Shown: piece by piece, positions 6,001 to 42,220 of the stretch
Layout of the letters: the number at the start of each line of letters is the position of its first letter
Numbering within the stretch: position 1 is the first letter of the stretch
IMG/VR virus record: IMGVR_UViG_3300037461_001438
Span: 26,477 to 90,476 of that record
Source: a virus
Taxonomy: Duplodnaviria > Caudoviricetes
DNA length: 64,000 nucleotides
Direction: 5' to 3' (one strand)
Notes under the pieces: model-generated
The model's input: only the letters and a program-made list of their open reading frames with translations
The model's database searches: none
What the model was told of the DNA's origin: nothing
Made by a program: the position numbers and the translations under genes

Positions 6001-6031
6001 GTTGTCCCGGCGCGGCGTCATGAGAGGTTAA
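2..6031 (+). CDS. Tape measure protein, 5'-truncated by the window edge, with HExxH, TnsA-like nuclease and lytic transglycosylase (SLT) domains
   Basis: The frame is open from base 2 through the 47..6031 ORF. Central TP901/PhageMin_Tail-like segment (YEKILRTTAAAAGMTKKEMQGL...AATELMRLG); SLT motifs (AVAWQESRYNP, GAVGVMQIMP, ALAAYNAGPG); lambda-type C-terminus (FEKGGVV..PT...GLMGEAGPEAVMPL); directly upstream of tail-tip genes. Confidence 0.92.
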   Translation, partial: NRTKDVEGGKHQRIPMLEKQLEAHWGKQTDVGKALALLQRAATEKTIEISRYPKVFNPESKPPDTDVHKVDALKRFLESKGVKVGEREAGSYGYQRDGIVASPTREQSLKQLQRMFRGQDIQQTGKGAYEIVTKGGARLPWQTVGDLPHQRVGQYTVGEGVKVLRGKGTQMITGYHEQAHWLEDTGLMRPQQAEALTKHLRQIGMASDAESRARFLGDTMFRRASGVRQDLPSKIERLVQSIESGKIFEKAPLFPKGGGIDANTRSYGMGQDEIPPYQKRLGSKHGFFESQKNDRRIWYDSQLELGRLMQLEQDQAVAAYGRAQRQIPYEYGGKRYSYTPDLEVVRSDGSRMVEEIKPSATKAGMMYGSIPKETAKVNAAIEYLKKAGIGYDIISEKEIGRDFMKQARATTPSYGMTEDEFLKRFAESKRGLKPEESVVRRAEPDYNALAEKTAQGYVAEQKAAEQKIRQTQGAQFVEMGGKENLTEGYNLLGEDFKKFQDQRRELADMLMRGGTARDLDEIERIFGDDKKFIKAYKKNLGEIAIMQKGRSKQALESEAYFASKGKLEENEYYKKQVLRKGGIGKAFNQQVDLLKRDGKTGEELFSGIKTAYDEAMRWRLLEDVNEKVKKQIEAGAKQGIVDGVGAGVEATQEKSRKAGQAATFKTAAEADAALAAQRGEQAKSVVPDKYKKKLDQYAERVADLEMMARTPGQRDVVKGLRTQLGSMQAGVIGTGGIEAYGAGLKKLGGEIDKTHKKIIALNGGMRGAGGGGAGAGGWGIMQKWSLYMSGIAATLFVLQQAISYMRALIGAGQEYEKILRTTAAAAGMTKKEMQGLDASFMNIMKSQGYSQKDLAEAATELMRLGLSYEDAQKKMGDVAKVAEATGMKPAEAARAVAQDVHGLTQAYLEQAELLDGTLAKATDKAGKSITVMLTKWYRSKEPDLIKFLEKLMNYIEANQPKIEKFLNAFMTGLTKIGELLGMVIDKAMSLTIALEKAFSNPAFGAIAGGVGAGLVGKWALGKTAAKLTAYGASEAVAGGLGATAAGAAMKTGAAAVGGAVAGVALPVTVAAGTIYALTKYAEAQREEEVSSAIGIKEPNARLNALMAIRDERVGEKYGIDMAEWPYPEELEKMREESANATDALSLLTQAIEATKTELDAFKARAKTLHDIRREVEPDGRSYMRFDDKELDALIKDMFSKGGFGENTYAKGLDAEIKLAKRQLDRLKATPGTEELQADYGKFIEQKEYEKWFTLSQRRMGGIREYSQVFGAPAATIQEQPQFAAPASRYDDIFKEAADKFSISVDLLKAVAWQESRYNPVAVSKAGAVGVMQIMPDTAKELGVTDRYDPRESIFGGAKYLSQQMNRFGGDTALALAAYNAGPGAVIRNGGIPPYKETQNYVQKIMGGVATAGTTDTFRPMIEKTVRNEVAQLGLPPKRAEELVQSRIFAEEQKLKAPTMSFYEQLFNMTGKTDEKYWDNELAKIKQESQTLGKQATPEQQAAFEYQAEWLQKERRRAPQVRALEGIEETTGVTPKALIDIRKERETEAYRTKINQEWVKGNQETIAKLEKAHAIEMLKLDMQGYAGRLKANEDFFSETGLMTKDFQSLEVKSLEDHIEILRKSGKYNEDELAKLYEYRMENLRRKFIEPAKQELEKLFGATGRMAPELKKMEALEIEDDVKKMQDKNLPEDQIEEYRWRRYLDLNAKVLESTDDVASGMQAAWLRYQATVEPLAKSVSDTWVNAAHSMESAFKEGFFDMMEANFDNLQETATNALKIIQRAMAATLFDMVKMPIMGAAKTGMDSLFKNIFGPSGATKTTPTTGDRLIPDFGVAKGGAFTPGGHYAFEKGGVVDRPTYFRFAKGKGLMGEAGPEAVMPLEKTAGGGLGVKALSEKHGPMIMPLKRMPDGDLGVQAQFAAGGVFGANETLQPNPQMEAAQQAAQPAAGSGGDVKVIINNHTGEKVEAKESRGPSGNRELEVMIGNALMKDGPASRALQQTYGLSRRGVMRG

Positions 6032-6861: not shown

Positions 6862-7259
6862 TGCAGCCTGACCTGTCAAAATATGTCGGCATCCCTTTTG
6901 TAGACCACGGCCGCAACCTGGCCGGCTGTGACTGTTGGGGCCTTATCCGGCTTATTTATAAAAATGAGTTCGGTATCGACCTGCCGGACATGGGGCCGCT
7001 CTATAATCATGTTTCAGACATGAGCGGCATGGCGAATATTTATGTAGACCAGCTTCCGAAGTGGGAGAAAACGCAAGCTCCGAAAACGGGAGATGTCGTT
7101 TTACTGAGAATTCAATCTGTCCCGATCCATGTAGGGATCGTTCTTGATGGCAGCACAATGCTTCACGTCATGCAGGGCTGCGATGCGGTTGTTGAAAACT
7201 TTAATACGCCATTGTGGAAGAACCGTGTGGAAGGATTTTATCGATGGAAAAAGTCTTAG
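6858..7259 (+). CDS. NlpC/P60 tail assembly protein (gpK-like)
   Basis: YVGIPFVDHGRNLAGCDCWGL (catalytic Cys), GDVVLL, HVGIVL...MLH. Confidence 0.9.
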   Translation: MMQPDLSKYVGIPFVDHGRNLAGCDCWGLIRLIYKNEFGIDLPDMGPLYNHVSDMSGMANIYVDQLPKWEKTQAPKTGDVVLLRIQSVPIHVGIVLDGSTMLHVMQGCDAVVENFNTPLWKNRVEGFYRWKKS

Positions 7260-10200
7260 TCGCCTGCCGAAAAAATCCGTTCATTCCAGGCCATGCTGAC
7301 GTTGAACTGGCCGAAGGCGGCACCATCGCCGAAATCCTCGACCAGGTAGGCTTGATGAAAACGGCCGAAATCCACAGCGGGATTTTCGTTTTCATCGATG
7401 ACCGTCTGATAGAACGAGATGCGTGGCAAACCACAAAACCGACAAACGGCTCAACTGTTTCAATCGGTATTGCCCCAGGAGGGGGAGGCGGCGGTGGCGG
7501 CGGCAAGAATGCAATGCGCACGGTCGCAATGATCGCCGTAATGGTCATCGCGATCGCTGCAAGCTATGGCGCAGCGACAGTTTTGGCTCCAGGGATGGGT
7601 TTTGCCGCTGGCGGGCTTGGGGCAAGCATAATTGGAGGGATCGCCGGAGCAGCTGTCGGCATTGCCGGAGCCATGCTCGTCAACGCCCTTATCCCGCCGC
7701 CAACGCCCAAGAACAGCTCGGATAGTGGTCCCAACTATCTCTCCCGTATGGGGAACCGCATGGACCCTTACGGGCCTGTCCCGAAGATTTATGGAAAACA
7801 CAGAGTCTTCCCACGCTACGCCTCAATGCCTTACACAGAGCTAGTCGGCTCAAAGGAAAACTATCTCCATTGCCTGTTCTTGATTGGAAAAGGCAAATAC
7901 GATCTTTCCGATTTTAAAATCGGCGACACGGCGCTTTCATCGTACCAAGGCGTCGAAATGGCGATTTACAATACCGACTACACTCTCGACTTCCCATTAT
8001 TTCCAAATGACGTAGGTGAAGAATCGCTCTCGATCCTGCTTGAGCAAAATGTCCAGCATGTGAGGACGACCACGACAGATGTCGAGCACATCTCGCTTGA
8101 ATTCACCTTCCCAGAGGGACTCTATCGAATTTCAAGCAGCGGGGGCAGGCGCGCTACAACCGTTGAATTCACCATTGAATATTCACCTAAAAATCAAAAT
8201 AATTGGAAGGCCATGGGCGGCACAAGAATAAATGTCGCCAATAATCCCACAACCCTTCTTGCAGTCGGCCAAACCGCAACAAGCGCTACCGGCTCCGGAA
8301 CGATTGCAAAAATCCATTATTCGGTAATCCAGCAATTCGTCGAAACAATAGAAATAATCGAATCCTACGGCATCGGATGGTGCCCAGAATCCGGCGGCTG
8401 CTATAATGTGATTCGATACGAAGACGTCTATCAAGATGTAACCGTGGTGTCCGCGATCGATGTCTCGGTCACAAGCGGATCTTTCTCTGCCAGTCAGACT
8501 GTCCAGGTTGAATATTCCCCTGGTAATTACGTCAATTTGACATCGACAAGCGTCTACTTGAATCCGTCTACCGTTCATGATGAAAACGGCGCCCCTTTCA
8601 GATGGGGAACATCGTTCGATGTCCCCAAAGGCCAATACGATATCAGGGTTACCCGTACAAGCTCGCACTCGGAAAGCAACCATTATTACAGCACCTACTG
8701 GACAGTGCTCCGCGGCGTCACCAAGCAAGTACCCGTCACCCTCACCGGCTGTACTTTAGTTGCACTGCGGATCAAGGCGTCGAACCAGTTGAACGGCGTG
8801 CTTGATCAATTTAACTGCATGGCCGAAGGTTTTGTCGAAGTGTGGGATGGAGCTAATTGGACCCTTGCCAAAAGCAGGAGCCCCGTGTGGGCTTTTGTCG
8901 ATATTCTATGCGGAACGTCGAACAAGCGGCCAATCAGCAAATCACGAATCGATCTTGACGCCGCCATAGGATGGCATCACTACTGCGTGGAAGAAGGATT
9001 TAATTTTGATGCCATCATCGATTACAAGACAACCGTTTGGGAACTTCTGCGGCAAGTCTGTGCGGTTGGCCGTGGCAGCCCAGGCATGACCGACAACAAA
9101 TTCACTATCATCGGTGACATGCCAAAGCCGATGCCGGTCCAGCACTTCAGCCCGAGAAACTCGTGGGGCTTTTCCGGAAGCCGTGTCTTCCCCGATATCC
9201 CGCATGCGCTTCGCGTTCGCTTTCCGAACGAAGTAAAACAATACGAAGAAGACGAATGCATCATCTATGATGATGGCTACAATTCCGGCAATGCCACGAT
9301 CTACGAAACAATCGAATTCTTTGGCGTGACCAATTACAACCACTGCTGGAAACTTGGCCGCTACCATCTTGCCACACTCAGGCTCAGGCCGGAAACATAT
9401 CAATTCAATACCGATGTCGAGCACATGGTCTGCACCCGCGGCGACAGGGTGCGCTTGACGCATGACGTCCTGCTTGTTGGCCTTGGACAAGGGCGCATCA
9501 AGTCCATCTCGACCACATCGATCTCAATCGACGATGAAGTTGTAATGGTGACCGGAAAGACATACGGCTTTCAATTCAGGCGCTCGGACGGAACATTCAA
9601 GACATGTACTCTTACAACCGTAAACGGTACCCATCCGGCCGGGACTGCCTTGACCATCAGCCCAGCAATGAATCCTGCCGATCTGCCTGCCGTCGGGGAT
9701 CTTGCCTTCTGGGGTGAGTCCGAACATGAGGCAATCGAAGTCGTCGTTTCACGCATCGAGCCTGGGCCTGATCTTACCGCAAAGCTAACCTGCATTCCTT
9801 ACAATGAGGCCATCTACACAGCCGACCAAGGGACCATCCCGATATGGGATTCGAACATCACGTTGCCGCCTGTTGTCGACCGCAGGCCGCCAAAGCCCAA
9901 GATCGTCTCGTCGATTTATAACTACAGGCCAGAACAGCTCAACCCGGACGGCACAGTTGCCCTCATAATGAGCGTTGGCTTCTCGATGAACGCAACCGGA
10001 TTTCTTATTTCAGGCTATCCAGAAACAAGTGCCGGGTTCATTGCCCAATATCGGGAAGACGATGCTCAGTGGACAGAACTGCCGCACCTGTCCCGGGAGC
10101 AGCGAAAATTTGAGTTCCCTGTCAAAAACGGCCTTGTCTACGACATGCGGATCAGAAGCTTCAACTACCCAAACGGGCTGTCCGATTGGGATACGCTCGA

Positions 10201-13200
10201 AAACGTCACCGTCGACTTCGCGGCCCAACCGCCGTCGATGATTGCAAACCTTCGCTGTGTCGGCGGCGGGACAAGCTTCACGACCACAGATCTTGAGGTC
10301 ACCTGGGACACCGTTATCAACGAGTATGGCGGCGCATCCATTCTCGACTATAAGGTTGAAGTGCGATCAAGCGATGGGAACACCCTGCGGCGAACCGAAT
10401 TCGTTACGCAGAATTATTACATGTACGACTTCGATAAAAATGTCACCGATGGCGGCCCGACGCCGGCATTGCAGATTCGCGTGTGGGCGCGAAACAAATT
10501 CGACGTTCTCTCCGACACCTTTGCAAGCGCTGTCTTTACGAACCCGGCGCCGCAAAACCCAAGCGGGCTCACTTCATATTCTCCGATGGGCGGAGTTGAA
10601 TTCGGCTGGAACGCAAACACCGAAGCCGACTTCAGCCATTTCATCTATCGGTTTAAAATCGGTGACGACCCCGAGGAGCCCTGGAGCGGGTGGAAACTTG
10701 CTCCGGCAACGGCTTTCTTTAAAATGTTTTCTGAAGACGAAAAAGCGCTTTATGGAGAAACGCCTGAATTTTATTTCGAGATAAAAGCCGTCGATGTCTT
10801 TTTCCAGGAATCAGGTGCCACAGCGTCGAACCAGACTGCAGGTTCGCTCAATATCGACCTTACCGATATCGATGATTTCGCGATCAACGCTTCGAAGATC
10901 TTCATGAAAATTCCGGTCATTCAAAATTTGACCCTAACCGACAACTCGCCTTCAGCTGGACGCATTTCGTGGAGCGACTGCGAAATCTACTACAATGGCA
11001 ACAAGTATGAAATTAACGCTGGCAGCACGCCGGAAAACCCGGAGTCTCCAGCGCTTCCATACAGGTATATTTACTGGAAAGACCTTGCCACCGGAACCAG
11101 CTTCGCCACCGGCTTTCTCGTCTCGCAGGAGCACCCGGCTGACATCGAATCCGACTGGAAATCCGGTGAAGACTTCATCATCGCCGTCAACGTCAACGGG
11201 GTGGCCCAGGAGGCCTGGAACGCAATCGCAAACCAAGTGATCGGGTCAGCCTATATCATGAATGCCGCAATCGAAGATGCCCACATCAAAGAGCTGAACG
11301 GCTCAAAGATCATCGCCTCAAGCTCAATTGCGATCGGCAGCCGCACCTTTGGTGCAGGCGGCATGCAAATCGAATACGATGGCGACCACGGCGCACAATT
11401 TCATATCGGGAACGGATTGACCGGCGATGATGCTCGCTACATGAAATATATCGGAGGTGATGTTCTTCTCAAAGGAACCTTTATCCTCGAAGAAGGATCG
11501 ATGGGATTTGTGCATCTTTCGGATGCGCCAAAATTCTTCAACCAAGGCATAATGCCCACATCGACCCCCGGCGACCAAACAATAAACTTTGCCCTTCTTG
11601 GCCCAACACATGATGGTTATGGCTACGATCCGCAAGGCGGCCCCATATTCGAGCATCCGACATCGGGAACCTTTTCTACTTATTTCACAAAAAACGGATC
11701 AGCGGATTTTAGGACATATACCTATTTTACTTCCGGATCAAATTATTTAGTTTGGAACAATGAACCATCTTTCAACTGTGGGATGGATTCATCTAGTGAT
11801 TATGGAGCAGCTACTTGCGTGCCGGTAATCACAAGAAGCGGACCCGTAAATATCGACTTTACTTATCCATATAACAATTATGCCGATGAAGATGCGATAA
11901 CAAATCCACTTGATAGTTCATATGGGAAAACATGCGTTGCATTAACAAAAAGCTCTCCTTCATATAACGGAACCAACCCACCAGAATACGGGGTCGGATC
12001 GAATAGTGGCCTTTATTTGGTCCTCGGACTCAATTCCTCAGACTTGGGCGGCAATGCAAGCGGTAAATTAAGAGTCATCCAAAGGGTGAATGGGACAAAC
12101 ACAACTGTTGCAAGCGTTAACCATACCTATACAAACAGAAGAATCTACACCGGGTCATCAAATCCTTGGAGATATATATGGACAAATTCTGTCGACAATC
12201 CAACATACGCGTCATCAACCACTGAAAATTCAATCATTAGATTCCAAGACGGAGCTAAAAAAATAATAAAGCTAAGAATGTGGCGACAGGGCTCCAATCA
12301 AGTACCAAGTGCTGTTGAGATCCAAGGATCAAACACGGGTTCGTTCACAGGAGAACAAACAACAATTTACACAAACAGTTCACTTGGGACATGGTCTTAC
12401 CCGGCGTGGAAAGATCTTACTTTTGAAAATCTAAACAGCTATGAATATTATAAAATAATCCTAACCTTCCCGTCTGTGAACTGGACTAGCATGACTTCCA
12501 TGCAAATAATGGATGCAAGCAATATTAATCTTGGAACCCCAAAATTTTCAAGATTTAGCTGGTCAATTGACTTTGACGATCATACATTTTCAGTATATGA
12601 AGATGGGGCCACAGTCATCAGTAACCAAAGTTTTTCTTCGTCGATCGATTCTTATTTGACAAGCAATGTCCAATTTAGCTTCTACAATTTTCAAACATAC
12701 AAAGGCATGAAATGTTTCCAAAATGTTAAAATATGGGCAAATGAATTCAACCCTGATCCGAACTCAATAACTATCGGGAAGATCAGCTCTAATGCTGCAA
12801 GGGCATGGCTTAGATTTGAAAATGTAAATATTCCCAAAAATGCGACAATTAACTCTGCAAAATTAGTTTTTAATTCAAAATCGCAACTTTCAGGAACTGT
12901 TAATGTAAGAATCCAAATTGAGAATGCTGAAAACCCATTGGTGCCAGTGTATTATTCCGATCTTGTCGGAAGATCACTTGGAACTGCAAGTGACAAATCA
13001 ATCACTTCACAATGGAACGCTGAACAATCTTACGAGATAACAGGTCTTGAAGCCATTTTTGAAGAGCACTTTGGAAGATCATATTGGCAGGAAGGGAATA
13101 CAATCCAAATTCATATTCTGGACAATGGATCATCTTCCAGCGTCAATAGAATGATTTACTCTTACGAAGCAAACATAAATAAAAAAGCATATCTTGTCAT

Positions 13201-13813
13201 TAACGTCGACACCCAGGAATATACGTTGCGCGCCAAGGATCTGTGGCGAAACACGAACAACGGAACTCTTTATATTTACAGCGGGACTGAATGGCTCCCG
13301 GTGACAAACTCGGTTGAACTCGGTGACATCGCCTTCAATAACATCGTCAAAAAATACCATCTGGAATATGGCAATGTCGGCGGCCGGGTACTTGAATCGG
13401 TCACCGGGACATTCGTCCCCGGCTTTGTTTACATGGGCAACAAAACCGCCGCAACCGCCGTTACCACCAGCGCAACCGCTGTGGCCACAGCTGATGCGCT
13501 TACGGCATCCGGTGCCGATGACGAATTCTTCCTTGTCGTTGCCGATGGCGTTGGCACGGCTGGAAGCGACAACTCCGGTACCTTGACCTGGGCCAACACC
13601 TCTATCAAGCTTGAAGCGAAAGAAGGCGCCGGCTCCTGGACCCAGATCGGCGATACCTACACAATAAAAGACTGCGGTTACGGGAAGTCGCTTTCGATTA
13701 GCCATCTCTATACACCAACCGCCGCTGGAGCGACTCAGTTTAGGGCCACAATAGAGGGGGCCTCGGGGCTCTTGCAGACGGTAAATATTCAGGTTGTTCA
13801 TCATAAAGGTTGA
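7244..13813 (+). CDS. Central tail fibre / host-specificity J-like protein with N-terminal gpI-like domain and C-terminal carbohydrate-binding-like insert
   Basis: Start taken at 7244 (GGAAGGA Shine-Dalgarno). Gly linker, hydrophobic Gly/Ala stretch, GPVPKIYGKHRVFP, T(G/L)VALRIKASNQLNG, GDRVRLTHD and FN3-like repeats; the region near 11575-13220 is AT-rich. Confidence 0.9.
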   Translation: MEKVLVACRKNPFIPGHADVELAEGGTIAEILDQVGLMKTAEIHSGIFVFIDDRLIERDAWQTTKPTNGSTVSIGIAPGGGGGGGGGKNAMRTVAMIAVMVIAIAASYGAATVLAPGMGFAAGGLGASIIGGIAGAAVGIAGAMLVNALIPPPTPKNSSDSGPNYLSRMGNRMDPYGPVPKIYGKHRVFPRYASMPYTELVGSKENYLHCLFLIGKGKYDLSDFKIGDTALSSYQGVEMAIYNTDYTLDFPLFPNDVGEESLSILLEQNVQHVRTTTTDVEHISLEFTFPEGLYRISSSGGRRATTVEFTIEYSPKNQNNWKAMGGTRINVANNPTTLLAVGQTATSATGSGTIAKIHYSVIQQFVETIEIIESYGIGWCPESGGCYNVIRYEDVYQDVTVVSAIDVSVTSGSFSASQTVQVEYSPGNYVNLTSTSVYLNPSTVHDENGAPFRWGTSFDVPKGQYDIRVTRTSSHSESNHYYSTYWTVLRGVTKQVPVTLTGCTLVALRIKASNQLNGVLDQFNCMAEGFVEVWDGANWTLAKSRSPVWAFVDILCGTSNKRPISKSRIDLDAAIGWHHYCVEEGFNFDAIIDYKTTVWELLRQVCAVGRGSPGMTDNKFTIIGDMPKPMPVQHFSPRNSWGFSGSRVFPDIPHALRVRFPNEVKQYEEDECIIYDDGYNSGNATIYETIEFFGVTNYNHCWKLGRYHLATLRLRPETYQFNTDVEHMVCTRGDRVRLTHDVLLVGLGQGRIKSISTTSISIDDEVVMVTGKTYGFQFRRSDGTFKTCTLTTVNGTHPAGTALTISPAMNPADLPAVGDLAFWGESEHEAIEVVVSRIEPGPDLTAKLTCIPYNEAIYTADQGTIPIWDSNITLPPVVDRRPPKPKIVSSIYNYRPEQLNPDGTVALIMSVGFSMNATGFLISGYPETSAGFIAQYREDDAQWTELPHLSREQRKFEFPVKNGLVYDMRIRSFNYPNGLSDWDTLENVTVDFAAQPPSMIANLRCVGGGTSFTTTDLEVTWDTVINEYGGASILDYKVEVRSSDGNTLRRTEFVTQNYYMYDFDKNVTDGGPTPALQIRVWARNKFDVLSDTFASAVFTNPAPQNPSGLTSYSPMGGVEFGWNANTEADFSHFIYRFKIGDDPEEPWSGWKLAPATAFFKMFSEDEKALYGETPEFYFEIKAVDVFFQESGATASNQTAGSLNIDLTDIDDFAINASKIFMKIPVIQNLTLTDNSPSAGRISWSDCEIYYNGNKYEINAGSTPENPESPALPYRYIYWKDLATGTSFATGFLVSQEHPADIESDWKSGEDFIIAVNVNGVAQEAWNAIANQVIGSAYIMNAAIEDAHIKELNGSKIIASSSIAIGSRTFGAGGMQIEYDGDHGAQFHIGNGLTGDDARYMKYIGGDVLLKGTFILEEGSMGFVHLSDAPKFFNQGIMPTSTPGDQTINFALLGPTHDGYGYDPQGGPIFEHPTSGTFSTYFTKNGSADFRTYTYFTSGSNYLVWNNEPSFNCGMDSSSDYGAATCVPVITRSGPVNIDFTYPYNNYADEDAITNPLDSSYGKTCVALTKSSPSYNGTNPPEYGVGSNSGLYLVLGLNSSDLGGNASGKLRVIQRVNGTNTTVASVNHTYTNRRIYTGSSNPWRYIWTNSVDNPTYASSTTENSIIRFQDGAKKIIKLRMWRQGSNQVPSAVEIQGSNTGSFTGEQTTIYTNSSLGTWSYPAWKDLTFENLNSYEYYKIILTFPSVNWTSMTSMQIMDASNINLGTPKFSRFSWSIDFDDHTFSVYEDGATVISNQSFSSSIDSYLTSNVQFSFYNFQTYKGMKCFQNVKIWANEFNPDPNSITIGKISSNAARAWLRFENVNIPKNATINSAKLVFNSKSQLSGTVNVRIQIENAENPLVPVYYSDLVGRSLGTASDKSITSQWNAEQSYEITGLEAIFEEHFGRSYWQEGNTIQIHILDNGSSSSVNRMIYSYEANINKKAYLVINVDTQEYTLRAKDLWRNTNNGTLYIYSGTEWLPVTNSVELGDIAFNNIVKKYHLEYGNVGGRVLESVTGTFVPGFVYMGNKTAATAVTTSATAVATADALTASGADDEFFLVVADGVGTAGSDNSGTLTWANTSIKLEAKEGAGSWTQIGDTYTIKDCGYGKSLSISHLYTPTAAGATQFRATIEGASGLLQTVNIQVVHHKG

Positions 13814-17942: not shown

Positions 17943-18161
17943 CCGCCGCCAGCACCCGCCGCCACCCATGACCATTGAAATTGTAACTATTTGATTTTAT
18001 TGGTCGGGGCGGTCAGATTTGAACTGACGGCCCCCTGCTCCCAAAGCAGGGGGCCCGTCCTTGGAAGCCTTATTTCCCAAGCTTTTCAGGCTTCCTCTTT
18101 CCGCCTGGACCCGCCGCCAAGGGCTTTTTTGGCCCAAATCCGCCGCCAGCAGCCGCCGCCA
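17943..18161 (+). repeat. Five direct CCGCCGCCA repeats flanking the att core (candidate integrase arm sites)
   Basis: Exact 9-mers at 17943, 17956, 18111, 18140 and 18153. Confidence 0.7.
18001..18050 (-). other. attP: attP core: 3' half of tRNA-Pro(UGG)
   Basis: The minus strand reads CCTGC-TTTGGGA-GCAGG...GTCAG-TTCAAAT-CTGAC-CGCCCCG-A-CCA (anticodon arm through CCA). There is no D-arm or 5' acceptor strand upstream. It lies 20 bp from the integrase stop. Confidence 0.9.
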
Positions 18162-19170
18162 GATCGAAAACCCCCTCGAGAGCCTGGGAGGCTGCCGCAG
18201 CACCCCCTGTAAGGCCCCTCAGATAGATCTCCGTCGTCCCCAGGCTCTTGTGGCCCAGCATGTCGCCGATCGACTTCCTGTCGACCTGGCAGGGGCCGGC
18301 AAGTGTGGATGCCACACAGTGCCGCAAGGCGTGGAAGGTGAAAGTCCGCGCAAGGCCGGCTTTCCTGCAAAGACTCTTGATCATCTTGAAGCGCCGGTTG
18401 TACTTGCGCCCGGTCTTTGGGTTCGGGAAGACGAGCTCACTGTCACACCCGCGGTGCGCATGGCACCACTTGAGCACCCGCTCGAGGCCGCCTGTGATCT
18501 TCGTTGTGATCGGGGCGAGGCTTCCGCCCTTTCTCTTCCTGGTGTAGCGGGTCACCGTCATCTGCACGAAATCGACATCCTGCCAGGTGAGCCGCTGGAT
18601 CTCGTCGACGCGGGCGCCCGTATAAAGCACCGCCAAAAGAAAGGCCCGCTGCCGCTCGCTTGCCACCTGCAGAAGCTTCAGGACATCCTCGATCGTTGGC
18701 ACATACTTCTGCGCTGGCGCGTGTGGGAGTCTCGCCACCTGTGAAACCGGGTTCTCCTCTATCAATTTCAAATTATTCTTTATGTAAGAAAATACAGACG
18801 ATAGGTCTTTGCGGTGGGCATTGAAGTTGTTGTTGGTTGGCCGGCCGAGCAGGTAGATCGTGATCTCGTGCGCCGTGTACTGATTGCACGGGCGGTTGCC
18901 GAGAACCCGGAGGAACTCTTTTACGACGAAAACTTTCTGTTTGTAAGTCTTGGCGACGAAGCGGGCGCGGGCTTCGTTCAGGTAGGCGGCGGCCGCGTAC
19001 CTAAATTCCGTGGACGGACGGATCAACTGCCGGGAGAGCTTCTTTTTGTGCTCCTCCCTTGCGGCGAGCGCGGCCGCCTTGGTCCTGAACCCCCGCCCCG
19101 TGTAGGCCCGGCTGCCGCGCTCGAACTTGTAGCACCAATGCTTGCGCTGCTTGTCCTTCCACAAGCCCAT
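18070..19170 (-). CDS. int: Tyrosine integrase
   Basis: Catalytic set R (TGARVDE), K, HALRH, LGH and Y (TTEIY); adjacent to attP. Confidence 0.95.
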   Translation of the reverse strand: MGLWKDKQRKHWCYKFERGSRAYTGRGFRTKAAALAAREEHKKKLSRQLIRPSTEFRYAAAAYLNEARARFVAKTYKQKVFVVKEFLRVLGNRPCNQYTAHEITIYLLGRPTNNNFNAHRKDLSSVFSYIKNNLKLIEENPVSQVARLPHAPAQKYVPTIEDVLKLLQVASERQRAFLLAVLYTGARVDEIQRLTWQDVDFVQMTVTRYTRKRKGGSLAPITTKITGGLERVLKWCHAHRGCDSELVFPNPKTGRKYNRRFKMIKSLCRKAGLARTFTFHALRHCVASTLAGPCQVDRKSIGDMLGHKSLGTTEIYLRGLTGGAAAASQALEGVFDLAAAAGGGFGPKKPLAAGPGGKRKPEKLGK

Positions 19171-19309
19171 CGATCGTATCGCTCCTGAAGCGTAGCACCT
19201 TGATCCCCGCCGGGTAAAACCCGCCCAGTCGGCGCTGGTGCTCATATACCGAACTTAACGATATTTTTAAGAGGGATGCAACCTCGGCTGGCGTCAGAAG
19301 CTCTTTCAT
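19001..19309 (-). CDS. xis: Excisionase / HTH_17-like DNA-binding protein
   Basis: LLTPAEVASLLKISLSSVY...LRF winged-helix pattern upstream of int; its frame overlaps the int start by 170 nt. Confidence 0.75.
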   Translation of the reverse strand: MKELLTPAEVASLLKISLSSVYEHQRRLGGFYPAGIKVLRFRSDTIDGLVEGQAAQALVLQVRARQPGLHGAGVQDQGGRARRKGGAQKEALPAVDPSVHGI

Positions 19310-30709: not shown

Positions 30710-31345
30710 ATGGAAGAGCTGGCAGTTGTCAATGTCACCCAGGAGTTCAGCATCGACAAGCAAGACGTCGTCACCGTCGCGATTGCCCGCGGTGAGGCGA
30801 AGATCAAAAACAAAATCCGCATGCTCCAGGCCCAGATCGCCGACCTGAAAAAGTCAAACGAGGCGATTGAGGCCGAATACAAGGCGATCGGCGAAAAGGA
30901 AGTCATGTCCCGGCTTGCCGGCAAGCACAAGGCCGCTGAAAAAGTTGTCGATGCCATTCGAAACGATCTTGGCATCGAAAAGACTTCATGCACCATCGAG
31001 ACGCAAGTCTACACCGTAGCAAATTCCAGCGTGAAGCTTGTTAATTCCGGCACTCTCTTTATCAAAATCAACTCAGACAAAAGCGATGTCGAAAGAATCG
31101 CTTTCGAAGCGACCGCAAAGCAGCGGGAGCTTTCGGAAAAATTTTCCGCCAACGAACAGCAAATTTCCGAACTTACCGCCGAGGCTGTCTCTTGGAAGCG
31201 CAAGCTTTCCGACATGCCTGCTTTCGAGCGCCAGATGCGCGCAGCGATCGTGGAGCAGCAGCTCGAGAAGACCGTCGCCGGTCGTGAAATCCTCGAATCG
31301 CTGGGCAAAAATTTCGAAGAATCGATCAAGATGATCGGCGCATGA
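30710..31345 (+). CDS. Coiled-coil hypothetical protein
   Basis: AGGAG Shine-Dalgarno, 211 aa, heptad-rich. Confidence 0.65.
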   Translation: MEELAVVNVTQEFSIDKQDVVTVAIARGEAKIKNKIRMLQAQIADLKKSNEAIEAEYKAIGEKEVMSRLAGKHKAAEKVVDAIRNDLGIEKTSCTIETQVYTVANSSVKLVNSGTLFIKINSDKSDVERIAFEATAKQRELSEKFSANEQQISELTAEAVSWKRKLSDMPAFERQMRAAIVEQQLEKTVAGREILESLGKNFEESIKMIGA

Positions 31346-32433
31346 TTGCTTTCATTAAAAAAGACTCAGGCGACTGGGTCTTTACAGAAAATCAAAACAG
31401 CATCCTTGAATCCGATCATGTCATGTTTGTCGATGAAGAGGAGATCAACCAGGCAGGCAGAGGCTACGATGGCATGCGTGAGCTGTTCACAAAAAAATAC
31501 AAGCTCTTGAAGCCTGACATAGATGCGTTTGTTTTTGAAAAATACGAGCCGATTTGCTCGATCAACAACGGTGCCGCACCTGGATCGCATCGTGTCGTTA
31601 TCGCAAACGAAAAAAATGTTTCATTTGGAATCTTGAAAGTTATTTGCGATGCAATCGATTCTTACGATCTTCAAACATGGGGCAAGGTTGCTACTTTTTT
31701 TGAAGATGGTGTTACCGAATCGCTCTGCGCTTTCATATCAAACGAACTTTTAGGGCGCGTTGAAGGCAGACTGCCAAGCGATAAACACTCTTACCTTTGT
31801 GCCAGCGGCCTGCTCAAAAGAGGGCCAGTCCCGCATCGCACGCTCAGGGCTATCGCAAAAAAATTCAACGAAAACGGCTATCATTTCCATGTTGAAATAA
31901 CACCCGACGAAAAAGGGCGAAATGCAACCGCATGCGGCGGGATCAGATTCGTCCTTGAGGAAAACAAGGCCGCAGCCGAAAAGCAGCTTGAACAGATCAA
32001 CAAAGCCAAGGCTGCCATTGAAAAAAGAAAAAGGCCGCCTAAAAAACAAAAGGAAGATAGCTATAATTTTAGCAGGGATGACATTTATCAACTTATCAAT
32101 TTTATTCAAAAGGATCTGAAGGATTACTTTTCCGACAAGTTCAAGTTCGATCAATACGATCCAGTACGGTTTTGGCCGCAAGCCGGGCCACTCACCAATT
32201 CATATAAAATGCTTCGCGCCTACATGCTGATGAGCTACCATGACATGACCCACCAGCTCAGACGGAGGCGCAGGCAAGGCGAATGGCAAATGATCATGAA
32301 CCGCTGGCGCAAAACGCCGCAGAAGCGCAAGGAAGCTCTCACGAAAGAGCTTAGCAACGCCACCACCATCATTAGATATTTTGACGAAGAGGCGAAATCC
32401 ACCAAAAAACACTTGACAAAAATTCTTACTTAA
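31342..32433 (+). CDS. Hypothetical protein (363 aa)
   Basis: Long ORF with ATGA-type overlap; no motif recognised. Confidence 0.65.
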   Translation: MIAFIKKDSGDWVFTENQNSILESDHVMFVDEEEINQAGRGYDGMRELFTKKYKLLKPDIDAFVFEKYEPICSINNGAAPGSHRVVIANEKNVSFGILKVICDAIDSYDLQTWGKVATFFEDGVTESLCAFISNELLGRVEGRLPSDKHSYLCASGLLKRGPVPHRTLRAIAKKFNENGYHFHVEITPDEKGRNATACGGIRFVLEENKAAAEKQLEQINKAKAAIEKRKRPPKKQKEDSYNFSRDDIYQLINFIQKDLKDYFSDKFKFDQYDPVRFWPQAGPLTNSYKMLRAYMLMSYHDMTHQLRRRRRQGEWQMIMNRWRKTPQKRKEALTKELSNATTIIRYFDEEAKSTKKHLTKILT

Positions 32434-32624
32434 GGAAAGAATGATTTATGCGCGCCGCCGGAGACACCATCTTTTCCAAACTGAAAAGCAAGACGATCCT
32501 CTCACGCAAGCCGAACCTCAAGATCTGTTCGAACCATCAAAAGGACGAAGGCCCAAGGGTCTATCGGTACTGGGATTCAATGGTGAAAGGCACGGCTTAC
32601 TCCGACGGCAAAGGCTGGTACATC

Positions 32625-32699
32625 AGCGGGGTAGCCAAACGGTAAGGCAGCGGATCGATAATCCGTCATTTGCAGGTTCGATTCCTGCCCTCGCTACCA
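32625..32699 (+). tRNA. tRNA-Ile(GAU), atypical
   Basis: AGCGGGG/CCTCGCT acceptor, GCC-AAACGGTAA-GGC D-arm, GCGGA-TCGATAA-TCCGT anticodon arm, GCAGG-TTCGATT-CCTGC T-arm, A73 and encoded CCA. Confidence 0.85.
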
Positions 32700-32703
32700 A
32701 ATT

Positions 32704-32882
32704 GGGGGATTCATCCAACCGGGAATGAATACCGGCGAAAAGGCACAATCGGAGCAAGGCCGAAAAGCTCCGCAACCTCAGAGAGGCAGGCAAAGTACGC
32801 TTTTGGGCCCAAAAGCGAGAAATGCCAAAAAAGGACCCGACTTTTTTAAGCGGAAATGCGGGTTCAAATCCCGCATCCCCCA
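32704..32882 (+). ncRNA. tRNA-like RNA with the anticodon arm replaced by a ~105-nt structured insertion
   Basis: Perfect GGGGGAT/ATCCCCC acceptor stem, canonical GCGGG-TTCAAAT-CCCGC T-arm, D-arm-like 5' segment, internal hairpins; starts 4 nt after the tRNA-Ile CCA. Confidence 0.7.
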
Positions 32883-32888
32883 ATCTCT

Positions 32889-33182
32889 ATGGACTTAATA
32901 GACGCTCCAAGATGGATCATTGAAAGATTCTCGAAAAACACTATTGCCCCTGGTTTTTATCTCGTTGCTGTTGCATGCATAAAGGAATGCATCATTTATG
33001 GAGCACGATCATTCAACTTCATTAAATGCTACCCCCCGCAAATTTATTTCATTGCGGTGCATGTCAACCACGGCTTGAATTGGTTTTTTCTTTACAACAA
33101 AGACAACCCGAAACAAATAGGCATGTTTTTAGACGAAAGCGATTTCAAAGAAAACTTCATGATTGTGGAGAGACTTCTATGA
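32889..33182 (+). CDS. Hypothetical protein (AT-rich)
   Basis: ORF between the tRNA cluster and the next gene. Confidence 0.45.
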   Translation: MDLIDAPRWIIERFSKNTIAPGFYLVAVACIKECIIYGARSFNFIKCYPPQIYFIAVHVNHGLNWFFLYNKDNPKQIGMFLDESDFKENFMIVERLL

Positions 33183-33532
33183 AAACCTGCTACTACGCGC
33201 ACTCGGTCGCACTCTACGGAACTCCGCAGGAATCCCGCGACATCGAGATGCTCCAAAAAATGTTCTTCGTCTTGAACCCGAGCGAGGCGATCCATCAGGA
33301 GGCCTACAAGACCAGGGGCGGAATGCAATACTTCAAGGAGATCGTGCAGAAGTGCGATCTGCTCGCCTTCCGCGCTCATGTTGACGGTAAGATCGGCGCC
33401 GGAGTTGCTACTGAAATCGAGTGGGCCCTGGCGGCGGATCTTCCGGTTATCGAACTGCCGACGATGATGTTCGCAAGGTTTCTATCTATCGATAGCACAA
33501 AGCAGTACCTGAAGGAGATCGGCCAAAGATGA
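33179..33532 (+). CDS. Nucleoside 2-deoxyribosyltransferase-like / TIR-like Rossmannoid protein
   Basis: YYAHS...NPS...CDLLAF...IGAGVATEIEWA...LPV pattern. Confidence 0.7.
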   Translation: MKTCYYAHSVALYGTPQESRDIEMLQKMFFVLNPSEAIHQEAYKTRGGMQYFKEIVQKCDLLAFRAHVDGKIGAGVATEIEWALAADLPVIELPTMMFARFLSIDSTKQYLKEIGQR

Positions 33533-34204
33533 CTACCGAAGATGCCGGCCTCTCCGTAGCAACACACAATCTGCAGGGATCGTGACGATGGAATTCTTGG
33601 TCTTCCACAGCACATACGGCAGGGCGATCTGGTCGCGGCGGCTCTCGCGCATGACTTCGTCGAACCAGGCCTCGCCGACCGTCACCGACCGCGGGTGGTT
33701 GTGGCGTCTCAAAATGATACCGCCCATCCAAAGGCCGCTCGATTCGGGGCAACCCTCGGAGCGGTACCTTTCAACCTGCCGGCGGATGACTTCCGAGTTG
33801 TCCTTGCCGTTCCGGATGCAGAGGGCCGCCTCATGATAGAGATTCGAATGGACCGCTCCCTTCGGGGCATAGCGAGCGACGTCGTAGGCCTGCTGCGCAT
33901 GAAAATGGCCAGGCTTCACAAGATACCTGTCAACAAGGATTCTCGGGTCCTCGAGGAGCGCCATATCCCCGTCGATCCAAACGCTAAAGTCGTATCCGGG
34001 GAAGTGGCGGTGCGGCATGAGCTTGAAAAAGCGAGACGATCGTGATGGGTCGCCCGCGACAGGAAGCGCCGGGCAATACCGGCCTTGCCACGCGGGGGAG
34101 CTGAACGGCCGGTCGGTGAACATGCAGTAGTCGGCGCCGCCTGGCTGATCGTGGGCGATCGCGTCCTTGCCGCCGAAGATAGCCGAGAAGACGATGATTT
34201 TCAT
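33533..34204 (-). CDS. DUF616 (TOD1/MUCI70-like) putative glycosyltransferase
   Basis: IVFSAIFGGKD, YCMFTD, SRFFKLMPHRHFPGYDFSVWIDGD (DxD), W...RDQIALPYVLW. Confidence 0.8.
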   Translation of the reverse strand: MKIIVFSAIFGGKDAIAHDQPGGADYCMFTDRPFSSPAWQGRYCPALPVAGDPSRSSRFFKLMPHRHFPGYDFSVWIDGDMALLEDPRILVDRYLVKPGHFHAQQAYDVARYAPKGAVHSNLYHEAALCIRNGKDNSEVIRRQVERYRSEGCPESSGLWMGGIILRRHNHPRSVTVGEAWFDEVMRESRRDQIALPYVLWKTKNSIVTIPADCVLLRRGRHLR

Positions 34205-34476: not shown

Positions 34477-34971
34477 ATGGTCCTTATCAAGTTCAAAAAG
34501 GTTCACCCCAACGCGGTCATCCCGAAGTACCAGACGTTCGGCGCGGCCGGGTTCGACCTGCACGCAGTTGAGTTCACACGGCTTAACTCGGCGCGTGGCG
34601 TAACACTTGTGCGTACCGGGCTTGCCGTCGAGATCCCGAAGGAGATCACCATACGGGATCTGTTTTCGTTCAAGGCAGAGCTCATGCTCCGGCCGCGAAG
34701 CGGACTTTCAACCAAGGGCCTCATGATCGTGAACTCGCCTGGGACGATCGACTCCGACTACAGAGGCGAAATCATGGTCCCGATGCGGCTTCTGCCCGGC
34801 GATGAAAGAACGCAGCCTGCCAAGGACATGCCCTGGACGCATGACATCCATCCTGGCGACCGTATCGCCCAGGGGGTCATCAACATCATCCTGACGCCGT
34901 GGATCATCGAGGCGGAAGAGCTCTCGAGCACGGCCCGAGGCGCCGGCGGTTTCGGAAGCACGGGGGTATGA
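34477..34971 (+). CDS. dut: dUTP diphosphatase (trimeric)
   Basis: AGFDL, RPRSGL, GTIDSDYRGEI, GDRIAQG, RGAGGFGSTG. Confidence 0.96.
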   Translation: MVLIKFKKVHPNAVIPKYQTFGAAGFDLHAVEFTRLNSARGVTLVRTGLAVEIPKEITIRDLFSFKAELMLRPRSGLSTKGLMIVNSPGTIDSDYRGEIMVPMRLLPGDERTQPAKDMPWTHDIHPGDRIAQGVINIILTPWIIEAEELSSTARGAGGFGSTGV

Positions 34972-38498: not shown

Positions 38499-38755
38499 CA
38501 AATAATTGGTCTGTTTCCGATATCAAACAAAAAATCGGCTTAGAGGCATGGGCAGAAATTTGTAAAGACATCTGCGCAAACTGCGGCGGCCTTCGAGGTG
38601 CCTGCCACTGGAACGGCCGCTGTGGCCAATCATTATCAAAAAAGATGTTCAAGCTTAAAGAAGACCCGTTTATCCTGACTTGCAAAAAAATCATAAGGAG
38701 AACAAATGAAAGCCTGGCCACAACTTTACGCGATCGCATCGACCGGCAAAGTTAA
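38456..38755 (+). CDS. Cys/His zinc-binding protein, tandem paralog 3
   Basis: EARFFY...DICANC...H...C...DPFILTC. Confidence 0.65.
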   Translation: MDADEARFFYDDALANNWSVSDIKQKIGLEAWAEICKDICANCGGLRGACHWNGRCGQSLSKKMFKLKEDPFILTCKKIIRRTNESLATTLRDRIDRQS

Positions 38756-39800
38756 GACCTGGCGGATCGCCGTCGAAGAGTCAAACGACGGCGCCGTCAT
38801 CAAGGTCAAGCACGGCTACATCGACGGAAAGCTCACCGAGCAGGTGAAGCTCGTCAAGTCTGGCAAGAATATCGGCAAGGCGAACGAGACGACCCCGGTC
38901 GAACAGGCCATCAGCGAGGCGGCGAGCGCGTTTCAGGAGAAACTCGACAAAAAGTATATCACCGAGATCCCCAACGGAAACAACCTGCTGGCGATCATCC
39001 TGCCGATGCTCGCGCAGGATTACCGCAAACGCGCCCATGACATCGTCTTCCCGGCCTACGTCCAGCCGAAGTTCAACGGCGTGCGCTGCCTGGCCCACAA
39101 GGTCGCCGATGACAAAATTGAATTCATCAGCCGCAAGGGCAAAAGCTACAATAACGTCTGCGAACACATCCTGTGCACGCTCTTGCCTGTCATGGAGGTC
39201 GGGGAGATCCTTGACGGAGAGCTCTATCATCACGACTGGAGCTTCCAGAAGATCCTGCGAACGGTTAAAAAACAAAGGCCCTGGGGCCAACAGCTGCAGT
39301 ATCATATTTATGACATGGCCGACGAATCGATGACATTCACCGAGCGCCTGGCAAAGCTGGTTCGTTTTGAATACGAACCAACCGTCATCGTCGTTCCGAC
39401 GCTCATGGCCGAAAACGACGAAGCCGTCAAATCGTGCCACAACATGTGGGCCTCGGCCGGGTTCGAGGGTGTCATCATCAGAAACGCCATCGGCAAATAC
39501 AAATTCGACTATCGGTCGAAAGACCTGCAAAAGTACAAGGAATTCATCGACAAAGAGTTCCAGATTGTCGGGTTCGACGCGGAGCCCGTGGTCGACAAGA
39601 AGGCGATCATCTTCATCTGCAAGCTCGAGAACGGCAACACCTTCAGCGTTCGCCCACGCGGGTCGATCTTGACCCGCATCAATTGGTATGCCGAAGGCGA
39701 AACGTTCATCGGCAAGCAGCTGACCGTCCGGTACCAAGAGCTCTCCGAGGACAGCGTCCCGATCTTCCCTGTCGGGATCGCTGTGAGGGATTACGAATAA
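38706..39800 (+). CDS. lig: ATP-dependent DNA ligase with N-terminal WGR-like domain
   Basis: QPKFNGVRC (motif I), LDGELY (III), EGVIIR (IV), KYK (V), LTVRYQELS...PIFP. Confidence 0.92.
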   Translation: MKAWPQLYAIASTGKVKTWRIAVEESNDGAVIKVKHGYIDGKLTEQVKLVKSGKNIGKANETTPVEQAISEAASAFQEKLDKKYITEIPNGNNLLAIILPMLAQDYRKRAHDIVFPAYVQPKFNGVRCLAHKVADDKIEFISRKGKSYNNVCEHILCTLLPVMEVGEILDGELYHHDWSFQKILRTVKKQRPWGQQLQYHIYDMADESMTFTERLAKLVRFEYEPTVIVVPTLMAENDEAVKSCHNMWASAGFEGVIIRNAIGKYKFDYRSKDLQKYKEFIDKEFQIVGFDAEPVVDKKAIIFICKLENGNTFSVRPRGSILTRINWYAEGETFIGKQLTVRYQELSEDSVPIFPVGIAVRDYE

Positions 39801-42038: not shown

Positions 42039-42196
42039 ATACCGTGCGGCGTGGAAGGACACGCAAAGCAAAGGCCGTAAAGGCTACAAACTTACAACGG
42101 CGAACGTTTAGCCCGGTACCTCGAGCACTGTCGGGTGTAAACAGGGTTATAGCCCCAATGTCCGTTGCAGCCGGTACTCAAGCCCGACCACGGTAT
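42039..42196 (+). ncRNA. Second tRNA-like RNA with expanded central domain
   Basis: 8-bp closing stem ATACCGTG/CACGGTAT; D-arm GCGT-GGAAGGAC-ACGC at the canonical offset; T-arm-like GCCGG-TACTCAAGC-CCGAC; internal stems CAACGG/CCGTTG and CCCG/CGGG; occupies the whole intergenic gap. Confidence 0.6.
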
Positions 42197-42220
42197 ATTA
42201 AACCTAAAGGAGAAAAACAA

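Follow-up and report, generated by a model that had tools for sequence, protein, structure and literature searches.

A tRNA-derived element with a hairpin-rich insert at its D loop, beside the tRNA-Ile gene of a phage

INTRODUCTION

Among the stable RNAs of phage transfer RNA (tRNA) clusters are RNA C and RNA D of phage T4, which are framed like tRNAs, have been known since the 1970s and have roles that are still unknown. The former, encoded by rnaC and also termed species 1 RNA, is 139 nucleotides (nt) long (70908-71046 of NC_000866). It is expressed and has been validated as a late RNA (PMC9697503), and its function is still unknown (PMC3014915, PMC9697503). The present work describes an element of 179 nt from a different phage, in a stretch of 64,000 nt that comprises bases 26477-90476 of the 90,476-base-pair (bp) IMG/VR virus record IMGVR_UViG_3300037461_001438, which CheckV rates as complete. 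That whole stretch is here called the window and, unless another source is named, all positions are counted in it. The element, of which the 90.5-kb phage genome has a single copy, starts 4 nt past the CCA of a tRNA-Ile gene, as a first-pass annotation of this DNA had noted. It has the top half of a tRNA, a 108-nt insert at the D loop and the remains of an anticodon arm resembling that of tRNA-Lys(UUU). The element is real and tRNA-derived and, with rnaC as precedent, phages do make tRNA-framed RNAs of this kind. The reading preferred here, held with about as much confidence as doubt, is that it is a processed, non-decoding, tRNA-framed stable RNA.

The frame of a tRNA has been turned to other ends before. 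Engineered tRNA scaffolds, the tRNA-miRNA units of the murine gammaherpesvirus MHV68 and mascRNA exploit it to recruit RNase P, RNase Z and CCA addition and to protect a passenger, which either replaces the anticodon arm or follows the tRNA. For phages the identity of the tRNA concerned has a significance of its own, since tRNA-Lys is a main battleground between phage and host nucleases and phages answer with tRNA-Lys variants (PMC11464382, PMC12409363).

THE TOP HALF OF A tRNA

Read directly, the two ends of the element pair as GGGGGAT with ATCCCCC, which is the perfect 7-bp acceptor stem of the first-pass annotation. The 3' strand is preceded by a T arm (GCGGG-TTCAAAT-CCCGC) that deserves the epithet ‘textbook’ it had been given: G53-C61 is present in its 5-bp stem, the loop fits TTCRANY, and positions 43-63 of the Rfam tRNA model match it locally at 15.4 bits. 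What had been labelled a D-arm-like segment is accurately so labelled. U8 is present, and the loop of the segment, AACCGGGA, has A14, A15, G18, G19 and A21 at their canonical places, with U48 of the variable region presumably able to form the Levitt pair with A15. The discriminator is followed by AUC, no CCA being encoded.

Pair 3:70 of the acceptor stem is G-C and not G-U, so the alanine determinant is absent, as had been annotated. This bears on the possibility that the element is a reduced RNA of the transfer-messenger RNA (tmRNA) type which enters stalled ribosomes. A tRNA-like top half, a weak or absent D stem and a long internal domain speak for that possibility, as do a frame that ends in UAA (32847-32849) and a weak match (12.3 bits) to the permuted tmRNA model of Rfam. 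However, the alanine identity pair is missing, the tmRNA mode of ARAGORN (-m) returns nothing, the Rfam match is far under the gathering score of 47 and spans the 3' end of tRNA-Ile, and neither a P2 helix nor a resume-codon context nor an Ala-rich tag is visible. The annotation's judgement that this is not a typical tmRNA stands, and a tmRNA-like role is close to refuted; we give it hardly any credence.

Might the likeness to a tRNA be accidental? By our own arithmetic, the 7 nt that follow a T arm have a perfect complement within 200 nt upstream by chance in about 1% of cases, and the adjoining tRNA end makes a chance terminal complement rarer still. A descriptor that asks for a T arm, a 7-bp terminal stem and more than 95 nt in all was scanned against the window and 1.08 Mb of phage loci. 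It returned 13 long matches, 11 of them in or beside tRNA clusters (ten in four tRNA-array loci and one in the contig L092). Long matches can stem from two neighbouring tRNAs, which the sequences confirm for three designs that account for nine matches in four loci. Two of the 13 are unexplained, the element studied here and a 130-nt candidate in L092. The tRNA likeness of the element is not chance.

AN INSERT AT THE D LOOP AND A RESIDUAL ANTICODON ARM

The first-pass annotation had the anticodon arm replaced by a branched domain, and on this point the analysis leads elsewhere. When ARAGORN was run on all 1,995 in-silico deletions of the element that leave 66-95 nt, a tRNA was called in 19, of which 17 remove approximately element positions 20-127 and two approximately 32-138. 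The call was tRNA-Lys(UUU) in all except one, which was ambiguous, with a two-base anticodon. Because tRNA calls return only when this block is deleted, and return as tRNA-Lys(UUU), the extra domain is a D-loop insert and not a replacement of the anticodon arm; a Lys-like arm survives beyond it. Removal of approximately positions 22-129 gives a 71-nt cloverleaf that ARAGORN calls as tRNA-Lys(UUU) at default settings. The boundary of the insert is ambiguous by about 3 nt, GGA being present on both sides.

When the element is laid out as a cloverleaf, the distance between the 3' strand of the D stem and the T stem departs by no more than 1 nt from the canonical one. The D-stem strand, GGAC, makes three pairs with UCC (32714-32716), and an A-C mismatch is left at 10:25. 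In the anticodon-like arm three G-C pairs are succeeded by an A-G and a C-A mismatch. Its loop region, CUUUUUUAA, is rich in U and is the tRNA-Lys(UUU) loop CUUUUAA, as in E. coli tRNA-Lys, with two extra U. The stem thus falls short of the 5 bp of a proper anticodon arm, and the loop reads UUUUUUA, with U37 in place of a purine. The ancestral gene was most likely one for tRNA-Lys(UUU).

The deletions that restore a cloverleaf also raise the prospect of an intron-containing tRNA-Lys, from whose D loop 108 nt would be spliced to leave a decoding tRNA of 71 nt. Forms spliced in silico do pass ARAGORN at its default settings, 6.8% of the counted phage codons are for Lys, and phage tRNA-Lys genes counter PARIS (PMC11464382). 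However, the spliced product would keep only three proper anticodon-stem pairs and U37, and would have no position 26. As the annotation had reasoned, the element is too short for a tRNA with a group I intron; an insert of 108 nt in the D loop, for which Rfam has no intron or ribozyme match at E up to 10, leads us to reject a group I intron and a small ribozyme alike. Reading by eye, with no dedicated tool run, shows no bulge-helix-bulge around 32724/32725 and 32832/32833, and the nearest relatives of the tail fibre belong to phages of bacteria. All bacterial tRNA introns known to us are in the anticodon loop. Splicing to a functional tRNA-Lys is accordingly judged improbable.

The insert itself has three hairpins, designated B, C and D in Table 1. 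The CGGAGC/GCTCCG stem of hairpin B (32750-32755 with 32767-32772) and the perfect 20-bp palindrome CGCTTTTGGGCCCAAAAGCG (32798-32817) had both been singled out by the annotation, and both are there on direct reading. On the palindrome is built the inner stem of hairpin D, with a pairing probability of at least 0.98 (0.92-0.99 for the four outer pairs), and its apex GGGCCC is self-complementary. Some 0.06 spacer-less palindromes of 10+10 would be expected per 64 kb, again by our own arithmetic. The loop of hairpin B contains GGCC, complementary to that apex, a match noted post hoc for which shuffling of the loop gives a chance of about 0.013. From their sequences the two loops would allow an internal loop-loop contact or intermolecular dimerisation.

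A palindrome of this quality might equally have its role in DNA. The locus would then be a protein-binding site, an attP-type copy of a host tRNA end or, alternatively, the gene for a small basic protein, with the tRNA likeness incidental. Besides the palindrome with its GGGCCC, such a view can draw on the phage integrase encoded in the window and on a basic open reading frame (ORF) of 57 codons at 32725-32898. Yet the integrase is 13.5 kb away, and the 5' acceptor strand and the D loop would be superfluous in an attP copy. The 3' 24-mer is present in 0 of 185,579 GTDB species genomes, and the element has therefore not been copied from the tRNA end of a host. For the ORF no homologue was found, and its ATG, read by eye, lacks a properly spaced Shine-Dalgarno sequence; the region is probably not coding. 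A role at the DNA or coding level is very improbable. A mobile element repeated within the phage was also considered and rejected, no second copy of the insert being found: it has no repeat elsewhere in the phage genome, and no terminal inverted repeats are apparent by eye.

Table 1. Parts of the tRNA-derived element, its surroundings and other genes of the window
Feature	Positions	Strand	Basis or remark
Whole tRNA-derived element, 179 nt including discriminator A	32704-32882	+	sequence and folding
Acceptor stem, 5' strand GGGGGAU	32704-32710	+	perfect complement of 32875-32881
U8, C9, D-stem 5' strand AUCC, D loop AACCGGGA	32711-32724	+	sequence; ARAGORN cloverleaf
Insert of 108 nt, D-loop position 21 to D-stem 3' strand	32725-32832	+	deletion scan
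Hairpin B, 6-bp stem CGGAGC/GCUCCG, 11-nt loop AAGGCCGAAAA	32750-32772	+	probability about 0.55
Hairpin C, CCUC-AGA-GAGG	32776-32786 (element 73-83)	+	probability at least 0.98
Hairpin D, outer stem GGCA/UGCC, two 5-nt internal loops, inner stem of 7-8 bp	32789-32826 (element 86-123)	+	folding
D-stem 3' strand GGAC	32833-32836	+	ARAGORN spliced structures; constrained folds
Degenerate anticodon-like arm	32837-32853	+	ARAGORN spliced structures
Variable region AAAU, 4 nt (type I)	32854-32857	+	sequence; ARAGORN structures
T arm GCGGG-UUCAAAU-CCCGC, canonical	32858-32874	+	sequence; pairing probability 0.99-1.0
Acceptor stem, 3' strand AUCCCCC, with discriminator A (A32882)	32875-32882	+	sequence reading
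tRNA-Ile(GAU), CCA encoded (32697-32699)	32625-32699	+	ARAGORN; Rfam RF00005, 64 bits, E = 1.4e-11
Spacer AATT, 4 nt, tRNA-Ile CCA to element G1	32700-32703	+	sequence reading
Sigma-70-like promoter candidate TTGACA-18-AAGAAT	32413-32442	+	10 of 12 consensus matches
Tape measure protein	47-6031		
J-like central tail fibre	7214-13813		
Integrase	18070-19245	-	
dUTPase	34477-34971		
ATP-dependent ligase	38706-39800		

FOLDING AND MEMBERSHIP OF KNOWN CLASSES

The element as a whole has a minimum free energy of -66.6 kcal/mol (z = -3.9, with one of 200 shuffles equally good), and its flanks are unstructured, z being 0.0 for the 182 nt before tRNA-Ile and +0.8 for the 148 nt that follow the element. 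For the isolated insert the folding energy is -30 kcal/mol (z = -1.8). Robust parts are acceptor pairs 1-5 (probability 0.99-1.0), the T arm, hairpin C and hairpin D. Elsewhere there is competition: acceptor pairs 6-7 contend with an extension of the T stem and with hairpin A, a rival of the D stem; once pairing of the acceptor and T arm is imposed, the local hairpin at 32711-32728 is favoured over the long-range D stem by only 0.4 kcal/mol; and the ensemble is divided about 50:50 between the anticodon-like hairpin and an A6G/CU6 hairpin at 32827-32847.

In its native form the element draws no tRNA call from ARAGORN in default, intron or relaxed mode, bar a 66-nt artefact at ps80, and no family from Rfam 15, where RF00005 gives only the local 15.4 bits against a gathering score of 29 and the Y-RNA and YrlA models give no match. 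At this locus both programs call tRNA-Ile only. Two of the checks named in the first-pass annotation thus leave the element in no known family. Tandem tRNAs were considered as well and rejected, the 5' half lacking a T loop and a 3' acceptor strand and the 3' half a 5' acceptor strand.

WHERE THE DAMAGE IS, AND WHAT THE ELEMENT MIGHT BE

All visible defects, four to five in number, are in the D/anticodon half (A10-C25, the A-G and C-A mismatches, the two extra U and the absence of position 26), and none affects the acceptor and T stems with their 12 bp, the T loop or the conserved bases of the D loop. Chance would yield such an asymmetry with a probability of about 0.03-0.08 on a rough estimate of our own. 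The split therefore fits selection on the top half only, and it is the best internal argument for a stable, non-decoding RNA.

The asymmetry also has to be set against the main alternative, foreseen in the first-pass annotation as a decayed pseudo-tRNA, that of a dead tRNA-Lys(UUU) gene which received a 108-bp insertion in its D loop, suffered slippage in its U run and is now a recent functionless pseudogene, perhaps passively transcribed. Two disabling lesions plus stem mismatches in the decoding half are as expected of such a gene, the element is a singleton with no detectable relatives, the insert taken by itself reaches only the modest z given above, and both ARAGORN and the Rfam tRNA model reject the native sequence. 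Against this, the acceptor stem, the T arm and the D-loop signature are flawless despite the damage to the other half, an insert with a perfect 20-bp palindrome and perfect stems of 6 and 4 bp is atypical of junk, and its lack of terminal repeats (by eye) or of a second copy in the phage is unlike a mobile element. We regard a dead gene as a possibility to be taken seriously, while leaning away from it.

For the preferred reading, that of a tRNA-framed stable RNA, we infer expression, processing and every functional step as follows. A phage tRNA gene, most likely for tRNA-Lys(UUU), would have gained the 108-nt hairpin-rich insert at the 3' edge of its D loop and lost a competent anticodon arm. 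A single transcript driven by the promoter-like site (32413-32442) would carry tRNA-Ile and the element. RNase P would cleave at G32704 and in doing so release the 3' trailer of tRNA-Ile; at the other end of the element, trimming would proceed as far as A32882, where the host enzyme would add CCA. That co-transcription and tRNA-type processing are plausible had been suggested at the outset, and a tRNA-shaped element directly behind tRNA-Ile bears the suggestion out. The intact acceptor/T-arm minihelix, together with the elbow of D loop and T loop, may account for the maturation of the RNA and for its stability. The working part would be the three insert hairpins, which may bind a protein or serve as a decoy, or may bring about dimerisation via the GGGCCC apex or via a GGCC:GGCC contact with hairpin B.

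Several considerations count against a functional RNA. A number of folds are within 2.4 kcal/mol of each other, and none of the element's stems has a G-U pair by which the RNA strand could be told. The insert alone, at z = -1.8, is only modestly structured, and the minus strand folds at least equally well. Antisense targets in the phage genome are of 12 nt at most, equal to the shuffled null, and the phage encodes neither a CCA-adding enzyme nor an RNA ligase as a possible partner for the RNA. Searches of INPHARED, PLSDB, IMG/VR, JGI metagenomes and GTDB yielded no homologue.

A more specific role, akin to the decoy or scaffold put forward in the first-pass annotation, would fit the standing of tRNA-Lys as a defence target. 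A non-decoding RNA derived from tRNA-Lys might act as a decoy for, or inhibitor of, host nucleases that cut tRNA-Lys, of the PrrC type or of the PARIS AriB type. The bait would be the U-rich loop with its likeness to that of tRNA-Lys, presented on an intact top half, and the D-loop insert would add binding or dimerisation. If true, it would be a natural ‘tRNA scaffold’ counter-defence RNA, though we think this unlikely. If the RNA is made at all, a temperate phage unrelated to T4 would have independently remade a Lys-type tRNA gene into an RNA that keeps only the top half and carries a new domain, and this would argue that tRNA-framed RNAs are a recurrent phage invention. The element would in addition be compact enough to serve as a test object, since its U-rich loop, its GGGCCC apex and its 108-nt insert are clear handles for mutation. 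Should it be merely a broken tRNA gene, it would be of little interest beyond annotation.

THE SEARCH FOR RELATIVES

The search for homologues was broad. With blastn, the 50,697 phage records of INPHARED gave only short non-significant pieces, mostly over the T arm, and PLSDB gave no homologue; an exact 24-mer has no match in IMG/VR. A pattern anchored in the D loop and T loop found five chance matches in tRNA arrays of IMG/VR, and 89 matches in JGI metagenomes, 80 loci from which were scored, the best being ordinary tRNAs or chance (including one, L116, upstream of a tRNA-Glu). A single-sequence covariance model (R1) was run over about 180 loci and 55 complete virus records: in 80 dUTPase loci, in 21 loci with the gene family found downstream of the element and in the 55 virus records it detected ordinary tRNAs only. 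The element is absent from 21 IMG/VR loci related by alignment of that family of 117 amino acids (aa). Kin of the phage were sought via both helicases, the terminase and the J-like protein, and no close kin were found; as far as these sequence comparisons reach, the phage is without close sequenced kin. With no homologue there is therefore no support from covariation, nor from conservation, which is the main weakness of any functional claim on the element.

THE PHAGE AND THE SURROUNDINGS OF THE ELEMENT

The phage, an uncultured one, looks like a temperate siphovirus. Helicases are encoded in the window in addition to the genes of Table 1, and the terminase, portal and major head genes sit upstream of it. 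The nearest cultured relatives of the tail fibre, at about 33% identity, are those of Bradyrhizobium, Rhizobium and Rhodobacter phages, and on account of them the host is probably a proteobacterium. Also upstream of the window (L089:14738-14830), ARAGORN reports a 93-nt tRNA-Arg(GCG) inside an ORF of 229 codons, which is probably a false positive.

The tRNA-Ile(GAU) that precedes the element has the anticodon loop U32 C33 GAU A37 A38 in the Rfam alignment, with C at position 33 as against the nearly universal U. In phage tRNAs, altered anticodon loops have been associated with the evasion of anticodon nucleases. The dominant Ile codon of the phage is ATC, at 44 per 1000. From the promoter candidate both tRNA-Ile and the element could be transcribed; its identification is by likeness to the consensus only, and shuffled sequences average 1.6 such sites in the 2-kb region. 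No terminator was predicted on the + strand over 31800-33800.

Directly upstream of the tRNA region is a gene (31342-32433) for a protein of 363 aa with a very basic C-terminus, which has no Pfam or PHROG match and whose sole match among 5.8 billion proteins is itself. Downstream of the element, at 33179-33532, is the gene for the 117-aa protein. The small family to which this protein belongs is carried by phages, shows Y..QE.RD and AGV..E as invariant motifs and is not matched by Pfam. Relatives of the protein have at most 58% identity, apart from an identical protein encoded by three further contigs, and a homologue in the jumbo phage L092 is placed among tRNA genes. A scan of the neighbouring proteins for tRNA-related domains revealed none.

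L092 is a 203-kb IMG/VR contig, and the 130-nt candidate of the descriptor scan is on its + strand at 8208-8337, adjoining a tRNA cluster. Its ends pair over 7 bp as GCCCTCA/TGGGGGC, one of the pairs being G-U; its T arm is canonical, and ARAGORN makes no call on it. Judged by its sequence, it may be another long tRNA-framed RNA. Within the window there is a further structured stretch, of 159 nt and free of ORFs, after a gene for 207 aa (42039-42197). Its closing stem, ATACCGTG/CACGGTAT, has 8 bp, and its folding energy is -52.7 kcal/mol; no T loop, tRNA signature or Rfam match (E up to 5) was found in it, and its similarity to the tRNA-derived element is not significant.

COMPARISON WITH KNOWN RNAs

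With tRNA-Lys(UUU) the element shares G1-C72, G2-C71, G3-C70 and A73, the loop core CUUUU..AA, a 4-nt type I variable loop, the T arm and the D loop, and in spliced form it is called tRNA-Lys by ARAGORN. It departs from tRNA-Lys(UUU) in the 108-nt insert between positions 21 and 22, in an anticodon stem with three of five pairs, in the two extra U and the missing position 26, and in the rejection of the native form by ARAGORN and RF00005.

A T arm and elbow are common to the element, tmRNA and YrlA, and all three would be non-decoding if our proposal for the element is right. However, tmRNA depends on G3-U70, a P2 helix and a tag frame, and no such features are seen in the element, and the termini of YrlA are in its Ro-binding stem and not in an acceptor stem. 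As for tRNA scaffolds, the MHV68 units and mascRNA, the element differs from them in having its extra RNA in the D loop.

This leaves T4 rnaC. Like the element it is in or beside phage tRNA genes and on the same strand as they are, its ends form an acceptor-like stem of 7 bp, and a canonical T arm comes directly before the 3' strand. Both lack a usable anticodon arm and have a body of stable hairpins, non-decoding in rnaC and, on the reading preferred here, in the element also. In sequence, loops of that body are complementary, TTGACG/CGTCAA in rnaC (an exact 6 nt) and GGCC/GGGCCC in the element, where the match, noted post hoc, is of only 4 nt and a kissing contact may or may not form. There are differences too. 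The acceptor-like stem of rnaC, CGAUUCG/CGUUUCG, has two U-U mismatches, whereas that of the element is perfect, and rnaC has two arms and lacks the D-loop signature. In the element the insert hairpins number three, the D loop is canonical and a Lys-like anticodon arm survives in residual form. Sequence homology between the two is not detected: R1 gives rnaC 9.3 bits (the alignment was not inspected), below two ordinary T4 tRNAs, and blastn is empty. The suggestion of a possibly uncatalogued class was nonetheless too strong, for rnaC has the same general plan of acceptor-like stem, T arm and remodelled body. It is the closest known design to the element, one with which the plan is shared and the sequence is not.

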